Assembly (NCBI RefSeq): GCF_006345805.1
Contig: NC_043009.1
Location: forward strand, 30,256,001-30,320,000
DNA: 64,000 nucleotides
Source: Octopus sinensis
Lineage: Eukaryota
Direction of reading: 5' to 3'
Part shown: positions 200-42,650 of the stretch, one piece after another
Position numbering within the stretch: position 1 is the first letter of the stretch
Layout of the letters: each line of letters begins with the position of its first letter
The notes under the pieces: model-generated
Databases searched by the model: none
Told to the model about the DNA's origin: nothing
The model's input: only the letters and a program-made list of their open reading frames with translations
Program-made: the position numbers and the translations under genes

Positions 200-3066
200 T
201 TAAGCCAACAAATATTGAGAAGACATAAATAGTGCGGAGATACACATACCATCGTATGCTATCTTCCGTACAGACAGAAGAAAAATAAGTCACGGTGGAG
301 TTGCAATGTACATCAGCGAAGATGTCCCACTATCAACCCTGTTATCGAACTCAAACACGGTGTGTGACACACTCATAGTACATCTAAAGCAACTTGCTAT
401 AGTGATATGCACACTATATCGCCCACCTGATGCCTCAAATCATGATGGAAAATTGGAGGAAAGCCTTAGTGCGATAAAGGAAGTACTAACACAACTGGAT
501 CAGCGTACTACTATGTTCCTGGTGGGTGACTGCAACTTCTCCAACATCAAGTGGCCTAAAGGAAACATAACCCCAGGAATGACGCACAAAAGCGAAATAA
601 AGCATAATCTCAACTTGATCTTACGAAAATGCCATTCATGGAGTAGATCGTACTCTCTCCAACCAGCCACAAAAATATCCCGAACCTCTGCTTTACAAAC
701 AATGTGAAAATTATCCACAACGTAAATATATCACCGATAATATTCTCAGACCATAACTTGGTAGAACTGACAATGTATGACCCGGAATTAACTAAAGCTA
801 AACTCCACACAGACGGAGCTCAAAACCTATCCAGTCGAAATTTCTATAAGGTATGCTGGAAATCACTTGAAAAACAAATACTTCAACAGGACTGACCTAA
901 ATTCCTCTCTATGCAAGGCACAGATATGAAACTCAATAAATTCATGTCAATACTGAGAGCCATACGCATTAAATATGTCCCAGAGAAGAGAGCCAATAGA
1001 CACGAAAACATCATTCCCTGAGACAGAAGACTACTAATGCGGCGGAAAATAAAGATCTTGAATCGTTTAAATAAACTCCTTAATGACTGTGTGAAATCCC
1101 ACCTGACAGAGGAACTTTCGAGATAGAAAATAAACTCAAAATTTTCCATGATAAAGAAATAGAAGAAAGAGAAACCTGGGCAGTCTAAAATATAAAAAGA
1201 AATCCTATAGCTTTGTACACGCTCTAAGACAGGGTTAATATTTGGTAAAAACGGCTCACTAACTGCAGATCCGGGGAAGATAAATGAAGCACTAAATAAA
1301 CAATTCCGAAGTGTTTTCACTTCTCCACTGGAAAATATGCAAACAAACAAGTCTGAGGAGTTTTTCAATGTAACGAATCTATTCGGAAAAGAGGCTACCA
1401 TCGACATCATCAATCTAAAAGAAGAGGATGTAATATCGGGCCATTGATGAGATGAGATCAAACTCAGGACCAAGCCCAGATGGACTTCCGACTGTTCTCT
1501 TAAAGACATGTAAAGAGGCTCTTGCAAAGTCACTGCAGATACTCTTTAGAGTTTCCTTGCATATGGTAAACTTCCCAACGTGCTAAAAGAAGGTGTAATA
1601 TGCCTTATTCATTAAAGACGGGCAGAGCAGATGCTAAAATCTACAGGCCCATCGCTCTGACCTCACATGTTAGCAAGACAATGAAACGCATTGTCAGAAA
1701 AAGGCTGATCACGTTCCTTGAAGAAACTAACCTTCTCACAAACACGCAATCCGGCTTCCGTCCAGGTAGGAGCTGCCCCATGCAGTTGCTGCAACACTTT
1801 GACTGGGCACTGAAAAAATAGCTAAACCAGTCAGCTGTAGATGTGATATACTTTGACTTTACCAAGGCCTTCGACAAGGTTGATCATGGCATGATATGTC
1901 ACAAGCTGCGAAACCTTGGTATTACTGGGAAACTGGGAGAGTGGCTGCATGAGTTTCTGAAGGGCAGGAGTCAGACACTTGTAGCCAATGGTGCTCACTC
2001 TGAAGAGACACCAATTATCAATGGGGTCCCACAGGGAACTGTACTGGGGCCACTACTATTTGTGGTAGCCCTGTCAGACATAACCTCCGTGATACAGTCA
2101 GCCAAGCTGACCAGTCATGCTGACGGCATGAAAGTATCGCAGGCAGTTAGGAACCAAGAGGGTTCCTAAAAGTGCAGAAAAATCTGAATGAAATATACAA
2201 ATGTGCTAACAAGAATAACAGACAGTTCAACGCTATGACATTTCAGGCACTCTACTATCGGTCCAACACCAGGCTAAAATCGGAATGCACTGGACCAGAA
2301 AGTAATACAATTCCAGAGCCAGAGTCGTGTGTGACCTGGGGTATCAAATGAGCAAAGATGCAACATACCATGTGCATATTACTAAAATGGCAACACCGTA
2401 CAGGCGAGTGGTTGGTTGGATGCTGATGACATTCAGAACCAGGAAAAAGGAGGCCTTGCTACTCCTATAATGGACTTTCGTTTTCAGCCGCTTGGACTAC
2501 TGCTCCCAACTATGGTCCCCAGAGAGTGTGAAACAAACTGAAACTCGAAGAAATCCAGCGCCAATACACAAAGAAGATTGACTTGATGCAAAAGATGGGC
2601 GACTGGGAGAGGCTAAAGGAGGTGAGTTTCTATTCCCGGGAGAGAAGACGAGATAGATATGCGGTGATATATATTTGGAATATCTTGGCGGATTTAGCTC
2701 CCAATTTTGGAATTGACAGCTATACTAATCCTCGAACTGGACGGGACTGCATCATATGAAAGAGCCCGTCTTCCCTATCTAAAATGAGGACACAGTACTG
2801 CAATTGTCTGAGTTTCAAGGGCCCGTAATTTTTCAACATTCTGCTAAGCAAAATGGTGCTGATTTGAAAGTTTCCAAGGAACGTCTAGACCGGATTCTAT
2901 CTGAAATACCAGATGAACCCATACCCTGGCAGGAGATACAAAGAAGAGCAGTTCCGTGCAACTCGCTACTTCACCAAAAACAATAACGGAAACAACACCG
3001 AGTAACTACAGGATGGTGCACCAGCATGACCTCAGCCACGGGCTGAAACTAGTTAAGAACTAAAGA
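200..3066 (+). mobile_element. Decayed CR1/L2-group LINE (APE endonuclease + RT), many stops and frameshifts
   Basis: APE motifs (HGGVAMYI, LYRPP, VGDCN, SDHN); RT motifs YRPIALTS, QSGFRPGRSC, YFDFTKAFDKVDH, GVPQGTVLGPLLF, degenerate YADD (SHADG); C-terminal LDYCSQLWSP near 2490; 3' UTR stem-loop 3033-3045. 5' boundary approximate. Confidence 0.92.
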
Positions 3067-10164: not shown

Positions 10165-10299
10165 CATACATACATACATACATACATACATACATACATA
10201 CATACATACATACATACATACATACATAATTGTTAAAGAGGACAACAAACGTTAAGGCAACAGAAACATCTCAAGTTATATAAGTTATTATCATCGGAA

Positions 10300-10370
10300 G
10301 GAATTCAAAGTCTTACAGCTGTTTCTGGGATATCCCAGAATATGGGACATTCCGTCATCAGCTGTGAACT
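10300..10370 (-). ncRNA. Penelope pLTR-type hammerhead ribozyme motif (stem I degenerate)
   Basis: Minus strand reads CTGATGA - stem II (ATGTCCC/GGGATAT) - GAAA - palindromic ACAGCTGT - A; lies just upstream of a PLE RT fragment. Confidence 0.6.
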
Positions 10371-10380
10371 AAACCCCCAT

Positions 10381-10418
<38 letters not shown>

Positions 10419-10477
10419 TGTATGTATGTATGTATTTATATATGTATGTATTTATGTATGTATGCATGTATATATTC

Positions 10478-11290
10478 AATTCTGGCTAGAGAACTATGCC
10501 AATGAACTCACACATTGCATAAAAATAAAATTCGTAATAGAGAGGCTAAAATTCATCTTCGAGAATAAATACTTTGTCTTCAAAGACAACTTTTATCGAC
10601 AAAAATAGGTGATTGCGATGGGAATGAGAATGGACCGCTCTTTGCTAACCTATTTATGGGATATCTAGAAATCAGACTTTGTTACAAGATACTAGAAAAA
10701 TACGGCAACCCATTCTATCTCTACATAGAAAATAACTGGAAGAGGTACCTGGATAACTGTTTCATTCTTTGGCATGAAAGTATAGAGAGACTTAAAGAAT
10801 TTCAACCACTTGTAAATGAACTTGACGTAAACATTTAATTCACGATGGAATATAGCCATCAACGAAATAGAAACAGATGTAAACTATAAACCCACGGACT
10901 CCAAGCAATATCCCGTTCAACCTAGCAAAAAGGATTTGACTATTGTTTATAATACAAGCACCAGGGACACACGATTACATGAACTAAAGGATACACTCAT
11001 CTCCAGGAACTAGCCACCATCACTAATTGATATATGCTTTCAACGTGCCCTACAGCTCAACATACTCGAACTCAGACATCCCAAATTAAAGAAGGATTTA
11101 CAACCAAAAGCCGTACCGTACATCACAGACAACACTCTTAACAATGAAGCCTTCAACACTATCCTCCAAAGCATTTCCCTACTAAAAAGATACTACAGAA
11201 TGAATTTCATCCATCATACAGAGCAAAAGACAGACCAAATCTGTGAAAAGTCTCCTGACACAAGCCCGAATACGCTTAACAACCTCCTAC
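10478..11290 (+). mobile_element. Penelope-like element RT remnant
   Basis: FENKYFVFKDNFYRQ..IAMG..ANLFMGYLE..WKRYLDNCFILW..I*FTME..YKPTDSKQY..PFNLAKRI; frameshifts and stops. Confidence 0.88.
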
Positions 11291-12438: not shown

Positions 12439-13554
12439 ACGTATTTATGTGTGAGTATATATATATATATATATAAATTTATATATATTCAATTTCTCAT
12501 TAACAAATCCTTATGAACAAGTAATTTGTCATTTGGAAGAGGGCGAGTAACTGTAAAATAGTTCTCATTAACATATTAATAAGGATGTGGAGAAATGCTC
12601 CTTTGGCGAAGTAATTTCACAGCGCAACTAAATTATATAGATAGGACTCCATTTGTTAAGCAGCCTCTCCCTCTCTCTCTCTCTCTCTCTCTCCCTTTCA
12701 CCTATCTCTTTATTTATCAATCACCTTTTTCTTGCTCTCTTTTAAATATATGTCTACCTCTTTATGTGTGTGTGTGATAATGTTTGTGTACATATACCAG
12801 GAACTTTGTATCCTTTCATTAGATAATATAGCTGACAGTTCACTTATTATTTTCTGTTTGACTTTTTCTTTAAAAAATAAAACTTTCGGAAATTAAAAGC
12901 CATAATTTAGAGTGTTTAGGCATAAATTGCGTACTACCTCCTCGCCTCTCGCCTTTAAATATTAATGATGTTGGCAGAATCAGTGTATTATTCCTCTCTC
13001 TTTCTCTCTTTCTTCTTCTCTCTCTCTCTCTCTCTCCCTCTCATCCTTTCTGGATCTCTAGTAGAGTTTTGTATTTTCTTGTATTTCGCCATTCTTATTT
13101 TCCTTTTCAAGGGAAACTTGTAAAAGTTCAGATGCCCTCGGCCCAAGAGGAAAATGACTGTTATGAGTCACTCCTATCTCGTCTGCAGAAATCATTTCGA
13201 TACATCTACCATAGAGTTTAAACATCATGTCTTTCCAAGCCAAAGAAAGGCGGTGGGGTGATACAGTAGATACAGCTTATAAATAGATCCGCCCGATATA
13301 TGATATCAAGTGTTGGATATAAATCCACAATTGAGCAACAACTGGGTATTAAAAAAGCGCGTGCTGAACATTTCGCCGCTCCACGTTCTTCTCGAACTGA
13401 CGGCACTGCCATGGCAGTAAAAATTATCTCGAGTTGGCAATGACATCTTACTGTAGTACTTCGAGGCCAAGGATGTCTAGAAATCATCCGTCTTGGCCCA
13501 AAAGGTAAAAAAGAAAGGTAGATACATATGACAGGTTAGCGTGGGAGGTTAAGC

Positions 13555-13810
13555 AGTTGTGGTCAATGAAAAAGATGGTATTAGTACCAATACTTGTCGG
13601 AGCCCCGGGAACAGCGAGTAAAAATTTTGAGAAGCACATGGAACAAATAGGGGCTGCAATAAGCGTGGAGTACTTGCAGAAGACAGCACTGCTTGGAATC
13701 GCTCGAATACTCCGGATGTTGCTCGAAAAATAAGCGGTGTTACCTTAGTTCACTGGTAGTGAACAGTGGGCACCCTAGTACATCTCCAGCGTTAGAAGCT
13801 GTGCAAAGAC
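13555..13810 (+). mobile_element. R4/Dong-type LINE extreme 3' end followed by (TAA)n
   Basis: VLVPILVGAPGTASKNFEKHMEQIG..LQKTALLGIARILRMLLEK*, short UTR, then a (TAA)n/(TGA)n array. Confidence 0.8.
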
Positions 13811-14822: not shown

Positions 14823-14890
14823 TAATAATAATAATAAGTAATAACAAAAATTTACAACCATATTAGTTACATTAATAGTAATAACAAAAC

Positions 14891-14936
14891 ATGATCTTCT
14901 TCATGCTCAACACTACGGCTAGTGGTGCTACACATG

Positions 14937-15010
<74 letters not shown>

Positions 15011-15029
15011 ACTACTACTACTAGTAATT

Positions 15030-15069
<40 letters not shown>

Positions 15070-15964
15070 CAAACAAGAAATCATACCACCTAATAAACAT
15101 GAAGAAGAAGAAGAAGAAGATGAAGAAACAACAAAAGCTATAAAACAAATGAAATCCAAACTAAAAATAGAACAGCAACGAGCCATGATAAAACGATGGC
15201 AAGAAAAGCCCCTTCATGGTAAATACTGCACTAAACTAGACGCAAAAGAAATAGACAAAGAAAAATCCCAGCAATGGTTGAGAAGCTCAGGACTCAAAGC
15301 AGAAACAGAGGGATTTTTAATTGCAGCACAAGACCAAAGCCTCCCCACCAGAAGTTACCAAAAACATGTAATGAAAAGAAATATTACAAGTAACTGCAGA
15401 ATATGTGGAGATGGACAAGAAACAATAAATCATATTATCTCTAGCTGCCCAGTCCTGGCTAAGAAGGAATATATTCACAGACATGACAGAGTTGGAACCT
15501 ACATACATTGGAAGCTATGCCAACATTATGGAATAACAACAGAAAAAAGATGGTATAGGCACACACCAGAAAAGGTCACAGAAAACGAGAAAGCAACCAC
15601 ACTCTGGGATATGCCGATACACACAGATAGAGAAATTAAAGCCAACAGACCAGATATAGTTGTCAGAGACCATGAAGAAAAAAAATGCTTTCTAATTGAT
15701 GTATCAATACCGGCTGATGACAACGTGTCTCTAAAAGAAATGGAGAAACTCTCAAAATACAAAGACCTGGAAATAGAGGTAACTAGAATGTGGAATCTGA
15801 AAACAGAAACAATTCCTATCATAGTAGGTGCATTAGGCATGATAAAAAAATATTCAGACAAATACATAACAAAACCACCAGGACTTACAAACACATATAA
15901 CATACAGAAAATTGCACTACTAGGCACTGCACACATCCTACGCAGAACACTTTCCATACAATAA
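14891..15964 (+). CDS. Open frame: microsatellite-derived N-terminus fused to the C-terminal CCHC knuckle and restriction-like endonuclease of an R4/Dong LINE (5'-truncated, no RT)
   Basis: LHGKY, ETEGFLIAAQDQSLPT, CRIC..ETINHIISSC, RHD, RPDIVV..LIDVSIP..EKLSKY, QKIALLGTAHILR; uninterrupted frame. Confidence 0.6.
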
Positions 15965-28106: not shown

Positions 28107-28979
28107 CGAGGTAGTATCGAGTCTTGGCCTAGTTCTGTAGCTGGCTAACAGATGGCAGCATACGGTGAGAACCAGCGGTCTTCTTCGCGAGGTAGTGTGC
28201 CGAGTGACAGCACTGTGTTCATTTCACAAGTTGTGATTTTTGTGTTTTTGTGATCACGTGTATAATGCAGTCATTTGATTTTTGTCATAGGCAGGAAGTT
28301 GGAACGAAGATCCAGTGTGAAATTTTGCGTTAAACTTGGGAAGTCTGCTACAGAGTCATTGAACGTGCTTCGAAAGATTATGCTGACGAGGCAATGGGTC
28401 GTATGGAATGTTTTGAGGCAATGGGTCGTATGGAATGTTTTGAGTGGCAGGGCGCTTCAAAAGCGGAAGAAAGTCCCTAGAAGACGATGATCGATCTGGA
28501 AGACGTGCCACGATCATCACCCCCGGAAATGAGATATTGTGCCTTAAGAATTCGTTCTCCAGAGTCAGACTGTCAATCTAAAGCTCTACTGCGACGTTTA
28601 TAAGTGTCTGAAGGAGGACATTCTACAAAAGTGACAAGATCTGTGGAGCGCGAAGATTAAACTCTCCTCACCCATGTTTCTCGCCAAAAACAACACAATA
28701 TCGCTTCTGTACCCGCCCTAATCACCAGATTTAGCACCTGCAGACTTTCCCAAATTGAAAATGCAGCTCAAAGGTCACTGTTATCGAGTTCCAGAGTGAA
28801 TCGCAGAAGGACCTCGAATAACTTACAGAAAATGACTTTCCAGACTGGATTCTAAGAGTATGGCAAGAACGCTGGGGCCGGTGTACTGTTGTTCAATATG
28901 ACTATTTCAAAAGAGATGATGTTAAACGTTAGGGAAATATAGTATTTTTTTATCAAGAGATCCTTTTGATACCACCTGG
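28107..28979 (+). mobile_element. Decayed mariner (Tc1/mariner) element with internal deletion
   Basis: TA-flanked imperfect TIRs (TA|CGAGGTAGTATC ... GATACCACCTGG|TA); KFCVKLGKSATE HTH; PP*SPDLAPADF motif; internal 27-bp tandem duplication 28388-28441. Confidence 0.88.
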
Positions 28980-40933: not shown

Positions 40934-41100
40934 AGTGTGTGTGTGTGTGTATGTAAATGTGATATATGACAATTATTTATATTTATAAATAAATTCCTCT
41001 ATTTACATAATATCGAGGTATCTTTCTTTCTTTTGTTGTCTTACTATTTCTATCAATATATATATATATTCGAAATAAGCAGTATGATATCAAGCAGTAA

Positions 41101-41187
41101 TGCAGTACGACCGTTTCAAGCAGATTCATTTAATTGAACAATGCAATCATTACATCAATGTTAATGCACTGCTATCTTCAGATGCAC
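41101..41187 (-). ncRNA. Type I hammerhead motif with long stem II
   Basis: TGCAT-CTGAAGA-TAGCAG...CTGCTT-GAAA-CGGTCG-TA-CTGCA on the minus strand. Confidence 0.7.
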
Positions 41188-41929
41188 AAATAGTAGGATT
41201 TTTGAAATTAATAGATAATATGTATATCCTTCCGGATATTCATATGAAAGTGCCTTGAAAGATCTTTATAGAAACCACCAAATAATGAAGTCCAAGAATG
41301 GCTATTAAACTGATTCTATATAATATTCCTTGTAATGTTTATAATTGATACATACACACCATTTATCTATTTTGGCTATGATATCATTTTGGAATTCTTA
41401 AATCTTATTTTATACAACGTAACAATATGGCTTATAAACGTTACTCCATCGTACCCCTAATAAATTTTCCCTGTATTAGCATCTTAAATTTCTTAGTGTC
41501 TTGCACCTTTAACTGGTAATTAAAATCATGATTTAAAGTCTAACCCTACGCTGCCTCTTTTGTATAGAGAGTTGCTCCTATCAAATTCACTCTTCCTAAT
41601 GTCGTATTGCCTTTCTCTTGGGGAAAAGAGACACCTATAAAACATTTTACGACTATACCTAGCCATGAGTTGTCAACTCACTTTTGTTCTTAATTTAAAT
41701 TAGATATCGTCTTCTAGTCTCAGATTTAATAGATGATAAAGAGATAAATATATTAGAAGTGAATCACAATCTATGACCCCACTGCTCCATGCGATTCAAA
41801 GGAATTGTAGTCTATTCTTAGCCACTTTACTACAATAGCAAGAACATAGTTTTCTTCCAACTCCTTACTCTGTTAAATTATTTAAGAAAAATTATATTAA
41901 TGTCCTACTTGTTAAAAATTCTATATTTT

Positions 41930-42017
41930 GTGCAGCTGAAGATAGCACTGCATTTAAATTGATGTAATCATTGCATTGTTCAATAAAATGGAGCCACTCG
42001 AAACGGTCGTATGGCAT
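41930..42017 (+). ncRNA. Type I hammerhead motif with long stem II (more degenerate copy)
   Basis: TGCAG-CTGAAGA(41936-41942)...GAAA(42000-42003)-CGGTCG-TA-TGGCA. Confidence 0.62.
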
Positions 42018-42045
42018 CATTACTTGATATCCTGTTACTTATTTC

Positions 42046-42096
<51 letters not shown>

Positions 42097-42404
42097 TGCG
42101 TGTGTGTCTGTATGTATGTATAATTATAGCTACACCATGCTTGAATATCGAATTTCTCTTCATAATTGATTATTACTATCTGTCCTAAATAAAAACCTTT
42201 TTCCTGTAAATAGAGTAACTTTCAAATGGTAGGGAAATAATATATTCATTTGAGATTAGTGTTACTTTTGTTACACCTACTACCACTACTGCCGCTGCCA
42301 CCACCACTACTACTAATAATAATAATAATAAAGAAGAAGAAGAAGAAGAAGAAGAAGAAGAAGAAGAAGAAGAAGAAGAAGAAGAAGAACAACAACAACA
42401 ACAA

Positions 42405-42650
42405 CAAGAATTCTCGCATTAGAAGCAATTTCCAAGGTCTTTGAGAAACATATTAAGAATATTGGGGCTGCTGTCAGGCTCGAAGTGATCCAGAAGTTAG
42501 CATTGTTGGATACAGCTCGCATTCTAAGGATAGTATTGTCTCTTTGAGTCACAGGAAAAGGCACTACTTGAAACCATTGGAGATTTATTATTGCCTGCTT
42601 TCAAGTAAAGAATAACCGGTAATTAAGAACTATCCGAGAGTCTTTCAGAA
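42405..42650 (+). mobile_element. R4/Dong-type LINE 3' end between trinucleotide arrays
   Basis: FEKHIKNIGAAVRLEVIQKLALLDTARILRIVLSL*, followed by (CAA)n/(TAA)n. Confidence 0.75.

Follow-up and report, generated by a model that had tools for sequence, protein, structure and literature searches.

Two outward-facing copies of one hammerhead-bearing 3′ end, set in (TA)n with non-coding DNA between them, occupy a 980-bp span (41069–42048) of the 64-kb stretch of DNA analysed here, which is referred to below as the window. The locus probably arose long ago from a single head-to-head insertion of a Penelope-like element (PLE) of the endonuclease-bearing type and has since decayed. The PLE origin of the two arms is well supported: their U-closed helix II, the position of the motif, and the (TA)n target are shared with PLE ends in the literature and with the end of L001, one of the two PLE loci found in GTDB contigs. 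The features of the element are listed in Table 1.

Table 1. Features of the head-to-head element, in window coordinates
Feature	Position	Strand	Remarks
Left (TA)6 target microsatellite	41057–41068		
Left arm, PLE 3′ end (pLTR-like), outward-facing	41069–41203	−	135 bp; putative short inverted copy
Left type I hammerhead	41100–41187	−	Core CUGAAGA 41181–41175; GAAA 41117–41114; palindromic helix III; predicted cut after 41106
Interior	41204–41913		710 bp; without coding signal; unmatched in the rest of the window
Palindrome, candidate fold-back junction	41218–41245		28 bp (11 pairs, 1 mismatch, 4-nt loop); starts 15 bp inward of the left arm
Right arm, PLE 3′ end (pLTR-like), outward-facing	41914–42048	+	135 bp
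Right type I hammerhead	41930–42017	+	Core 41936–41942; GAAA 42000–42003; predicted cut after 42011
Right (TA)22 target microsatellite	42049–42092		

Architecture of the element

The two arms align over 135 nt without gaps and are 81.5% identical (Jukes-Cantor distance 0.21; blastn E 1.7e-33 for arm against arm within the window). The 25 differences comprise 13 transitions and 12 transversions. A previous annotation of this DNA, made from the letters alone and called here the sequence-only reading, described diverged inverted repeats of ~145 bp; they are inverted and diverged, and their length is 135 bp once the TA flanks are excluded. It also placed (TA)n on both sides, and both microsatellites indeed adjoin the arm ends. 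The outermost base is not the same in the two arms, and the inverted repeat has no convincing extension into the interior (local score of 46 against a shuffled mean of 52). Inside the element, (TA)n runs do not exceed three units, and the inner junctions retain no (TA)n. The 64-kb window contains no third arm and no other copy of the arm or interior sequence. The element contains no tandem array, and the arm copies are inverted, not direct. The element shares with MITEs its terminal inverted repeats, its small size, and its lack of coding signal.

The differences between the arms show mild clustering (p = 0.039) and avoid the 19 core bases (p = 0.015, a value biased by how the motif was noticed); together, the clustering and the spared core could reflect two different templates for the arms. 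The tail of the left arm (41069–41106, minus strand) contains TACTGC three times. In the counterpart segment of the right arm (42012–42048, plus strand), the TACTGC units are altered, and two of them carry the same pair of transitions. Chance could account for this pattern, or it could point to two templates. The host DNA just outside the left (TA)6, at 41027–41069, weakly resembles the last 15–20 bases of the arm plus TA (72% over 43 nt, mostly TA, and possibly by chance). The window has a high AT content and a high density of microsatellites and LINE relics, as in invertebrate animal genomes.

Hammerhead motifs of the two arms

Both arms contain CTGAAGA, a 57-nt segment, GAAA, CGGTCG, and TA in an outward orientation, starting at 41181 on the minus strand and at 41936 on the plus strand, in agreement with the sequence-only reading, which had estimated the stem II region at ~55 nt. 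Read outward, each arm is organized into helix I, CUGAAGA, the stem II region, GAAA, C-GGUC-G, UA, and the second strand of helix I, and the predicted cut site is located 37 nt from the terminus in both arms. Helix III is formed by 2 bp with a palindromic loop. The segment ACGGUCGU pairs with itself through 8 bp, including two G:U pairs (−5.8 kcal/mol), as expected from the earlier description of a self-complementary, dimer-type stem III. The perfect stem I that had been proposed from combining TGCAG of the right arm with CTGCA of the left arm is also recovered; helix I is imperfect in each arm taken singly, with five of the six pairs formed (41187–41182 with 41105–41100 in the left hammerhead). 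The stem II region of the left hammerhead (41174–41118) has an intact 5-bp base, and the base of the right one (41943–41999) is broken, with two of five pairs remaining. The G10.1–C11.1 pair is absent, and the positions are occupied by U·U in the left arm and U·C in the right arm. This absence does not exclude PLEs, since the same variant is present in 15 of 26 Hydra-clade rows and in L001.

Each of the 29 proposed pairs is present in one arm or in both, and 50 of the 58 cells are paired, compared with 22–50% for slid controls; the count is partly circular, since the structure was drawn from the same two arm sequences. There are no compensatory changes between the arms, and no pair is altered on both sides. 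Because every pair forms in at least one arm and none is compensatory, the arms appear to be decaying copies of one ribozyme-bearing end. The sequence-only reading had made its case depend on stem I and stem II pairing, which is present in the two-arm alignment, with the right arm decayed.

The full motif was defined, after it had been seen, as a core with a palindromic helix III, a helix II of at least 4 bp, and a helix I of at least four of five pairs. It occurred in 1 of 150 shuffled 64-kb windows, that is, 0.0067 per window. The real window contains one match to these criteria, the left arm; the right arm fails in helix II. Cores with a helix III pair number 12 in the window, against 5.3 per shuffle. 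Rfam searches of the window and of the element gave no hammerhead match at E ≤ 10.

In the predicted fold of the left arm, helix II is kept, with a pair probability of 0.88 at the base and 0.68 in the rod; the right arm has 0.00 and 0.11 at these positions. The predicted pair probability of helix I in its active register is 0.02 in the left monomer and 0.00 in the right. The hammerhead was rejected as the minimum-energy fold of the left arm, in which helix II is recovered but helix I pairs in another register. In a read-through RNA, 115 (plus strand) or 104 (minus strand) of the 135 arm bases are predicted to pair with the opposite arm. Since each strand carries a single sense hammerhead, the dimeric helix III has no partner in cis. 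The arm–arm pairing and the single sense hammerhead per strand make present activity unlikely, and, given the predicted misfolding of the right arm, cleavage today is unlikely as well. The sequence-only reading expected transcripts of either strand to meet a ribozyme near their 3′ end. One sense hammerhead per strand is present, but the functional import of this is weak, given the predicted arm–arm duplex, the unpartnered helix III, and the misfolded right arm.

Interior

The 710-bp interior gave no coding signal in any test, which upholds the earlier description of a ~700-bp interior without a recognisable ORF. Pfam searches of the six frames detected no coding signal and no transposase, and the stop counts in the six frames equal the shuffled values (lowest fraction 0.07). 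Against a profile of 120 PLE sequences, all six frames scored below zero or were unscored, whereas a control relic reached 85.9 bits; the profile is made of Neptune-like proteins only, and so excludes an interior relic of another PLE clade less than fully. A short-motif scan for Hydra-clade motifs (RWK, DKT, CxCX5C, no CCHH) found nothing coherent in the element. The element also contains no linked RT and GIY-YIG ORF, which lowers only its membership among autonomous elements and makes it at most a non-autonomous or truncated product.

Two candidates for coding relics were rejected. A GIY-YIG-like stretch noticed by eye at ~41290–41360 (plus strand) gave two phmmer matches among 1.84 billion representatives, both of which were tandem-repeat scoring artefacts. 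A weak RT-like tblastn match on the minus strand (best E 0.024 among 120 queries) was followed by a homolog search of that frame, in which 0 of 768 candidates matched at E ≤ 10. The database-wide search thus covered two of the six interior frames, and Pfam and the profile all six. A bacterial promoter scan was at chance level and is not relevant here.

The palindrome next to the left arm has a z value of −2.7. It was noticed post hoc; a comparable palindrome occurred within 45 nt of a junction in 11 of 2000 shuffles and anywhere in 64 of 2000.

Other PLE loci

L001 (1852–1944) and L002 are animal-type PLE loci; the short contigs that carry them are assigned to bacterial genomes in GTDB and are probably host contamination. 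The end of L001 carries a hammerhead with CUGAAGAU..UGAA, whose helix II is U-closed and whose helix III is palindromic, and (TA)n follows ~52 nt later. By eye, a tRNA-SINE-like start is present after this TA run. L002 contains no convincing hammerhead.

A second PLE relic in the window, at 10229–11290, is Neptune-like by protein similarity and lies between microsatellite runs. A broken RT/thumb region is encoded on the plus strand at 10474–11272 (tblastn E 1.6e-21). Upstream of the RT, a minus-strand hammerhead core at 10361 has a palindromic ACAGCUGU helix III and has lost helix I. This relic is an inverted pLTR of a different family, unrelated to the element at 41069–42048, with the same inverted polarity.

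Comparison with known PLE systems

Inverted outward-facing pLTRs, and hammerhead pairs 100–700 bp apart on opposite strands, have already been published. In the parts of Arkhipova 2013 consulted (PMC3846280), head-to-head is the commonest PLE arrangement, palindromes occur at inverted junctions, and unrelated non-coding DNA is captured between pLTRs. In those of Craig 2021 (PMC8557442), inverted 5′-truncated copies flank the PLE unit, a (TA)n preference is described, and Penelope-13_HM has hammerheads on both strands. The head-to-head EN+ PLEs (Penelope/Poseidon, Neptune, and Hydra; for example, Pen2_Av derivatives and Penelope-13_HM) thus resemble the element in the inverted 5′-truncated copy of the end, the outward 3′ ends, the hammerhead on both strands (Penelope-13_HM), the palindrome near the inverted junction, and the (TA)n target. 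The element differs from them in having no ORF relic in its interior and no tandem direct pLTR.

The PLEs of Schistosoma mansoni carry two minimal type I hammerheads on opposite strands, ~100–700 bp apart, compared with ~755 bp between the cores here (Cervera and de la Pena 2014, PMC4209133, in part). As in the element, their helix III is palindromic and of the dimer type, and helix I has 4–6 bp; their activity in vitro is low. Their stem II helix has 7–8 bp, in contrast to the 57-nt region here, and the element differs further in its missing G10.1–C11.1 pair. For a PLE of Anolis, hammerhead cleavage is described as dispensable for insertion in vitro (PMC11167929, in part).

Among the Hydra-clade hammerheads in Craig 2021 File S2, 15 of 26 rows, counted by eye, have U at position 10.1 opposite U or C at position 11.1. 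They share with the element this CUGANGAU...(U/C)GAA closure and the (TA)n preference, and differ from it in a helix III of 3–4 bp with a loop of 1–3 nt and in a stem II of ~25 nt or less. U closure is not diagnostic of Hydra, since it is also found in the Neptune-like locus L001. A look-up of 6 + 6 short k-mers in the Craig 2021 supplement matched the arms to none of the published consensus sequences compared. A Naiad origin was rejected, as the Octopus Naiad 3′ ends in that supplement are, by eye, unlike the arms. Non-LTR retrozymes are likewise non-coding, have a type I hammerhead, and have been proposed to be PLE derivatives (bioRxiv 10.64898/2026.07.22.740005, in part); they form direct tandem repeats, whereas the element has an inverted pair. 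The stem II region of 57 nt compares with at most ~54 nt in 34 rows of File S2, as judged by eye. Of the traits of the element, only this length of stem II lies outside the published examples compared.

Origin of the locus

Ends of this kind are pLTRs, and in PLE biology reverse transcription is primed at a nick made by GIY-YIG in AT-rich DNA. In the insertion that we propose, the (TA)n tract would have been nicked by the reverse transcriptase/GIY-YIG protein of a PLE, provided in trans. A 5′-truncated template of ~845 bp, comprising a non-coding 3′ region, spacer, or captured DNA together with the ribozyme end, would then have been copied. This long 5′-truncated copy is probably on the plus strand, ending at the right arm. 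A second copy of ~135 bp may have been laid inverted at the 5′ end of the first, probably through fold-back priming at the palindrome by the left arm; it is the position of the palindrome that points to the left arm as the short inverted copy. The arms would have been near-identical at insertion and would since have drifted apart by 18.5%. The ancestral hammerhead was presumably of the dimer type, active only in tandem or in trans, and the locus is probably inert now. Against a PLE insertion, no PLE protein relic ties the interior to a PLE.

The symmetric outward ends, the (TA)n at both of them, and the non-coding interior would also fit a family of non-autonomous PLEs in which the 980-bp unit, inverted pLTRs included, has become fixed and is copied whole into (TA)n from either strand by a PLE protein acting in trans. 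Moreover, pLTRs suffice in cis to mobilise unrelated DNA (PMC3846280, in part), and non-autonomous Chlamys PLEs are known (Craig 2021, PMC8557442, in part). We nevertheless consider such a family unlikely, because a one-off inverted insertion, which PLEs routinely produce, would have the same anatomy; the 64-kb window holds no second copy; the exact hammerhead-plus-flank pattern has 0 matches in GTDB contigs, which is a weak test for an animal repeat; and a full-length RNA is predicted to form an arm–arm duplex hiding both ends. A multicopy MITE-like family with fixed inverted pLTRs is not described in the literature searched, most subscription papers and Repbase lying outside it. It is doubtful that the element is a multicopy retro-MITE, that is, a 980-bp unit with two inverted PLE ends and hammerheads with a 57-nt rod-like stem II, likely to be annotated as a DNA-transposon MITE. 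The sequence-only reading of a MITE-like, non-autonomous Penelope derivative with inverted pLTRs and TA targeting is therefore retained for the PLE termini, the inverted outward-facing pLTRs, and the (TA)n at this locus, but not for the MITE-like family, which has a single copy in 64 kb.

The arm divergence of 18.5%, the clustering of the differences, and the lack of a PLE signal in the interior could be explained by two independent insertions of solo pLTRs or short PLEs into neighbouring (TA)n tracts separated by host DNA, and solo pLTRs are known (PMC3846280, in part). This account, which the sequence-only reading had named as the one that would overturn its own, is very unlikely: just two copies of the arm are present in 64 kb, yet they lie 710 bp apart and back to back. 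The missing third arm, together with the lack of (TA)n of more than three units inside the element, including its inner junctions, disfavours separate insertions. The size, the long imperfect inverted termini, and the TA flanks fit the description of MITEs (PMC8969392, in part), which, like the element, are shorter than 1 kb and non-coding. Here, however, retroelement ends with a ribozyme form the termini. It is highly improbable that the element is a true DNA-transposon MITE, with the 135-bp arms as terminal inverted repeats, TA as the target, and a hammerhead that arose by chance or was captured, given the rarity of the motif in shuffled windows, its PLE-like distance of 37 nt from the end and PLE-type U closure, the absence of a transposase relic in the six Pfam-searched frames, and the difference in the outermost base between the arms.

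As a single decayed insertion, the element contributes a further PLE family end, one whose stem II is unusually long. The locus also shows how repeat annotation can mistake PLE products for TA-targeting MITEs. Its layout is ordinary for PLEs unless the element belongs to a repeated family that moves as one unit. A true uniform family would mean that inverted pLTRs are heritable as a unit, and would provide a handle on how inverted pLTRs form and on what PLE hammerheads do. A true retro-MITE would be a natural minimal two-ended substrate for asking which strand PLEs use as a template.

Other features in the window

An exact 27-bp tandem duplication at 28388–28444, located after CTGACGA, fits a loose hammerhead pattern without helix II. 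An open frame of 359 codons at 14885–15964 (plus strand) lies between (TAA)n/(CTA)n runs and contains a zf-RVT domain; it resembles the C-terminus of a LINE, putatively of the Dong/R4 type. A relic at 13515–13724 is related to this frame (tblastn E 5e-7), and a piece at ~42400–42550 resembles it by eye only. A broken LINE at 219–2169 (plus strand) has matches to an AP-endonuclease (Exo_endo_phos_2) and to RVT_1.
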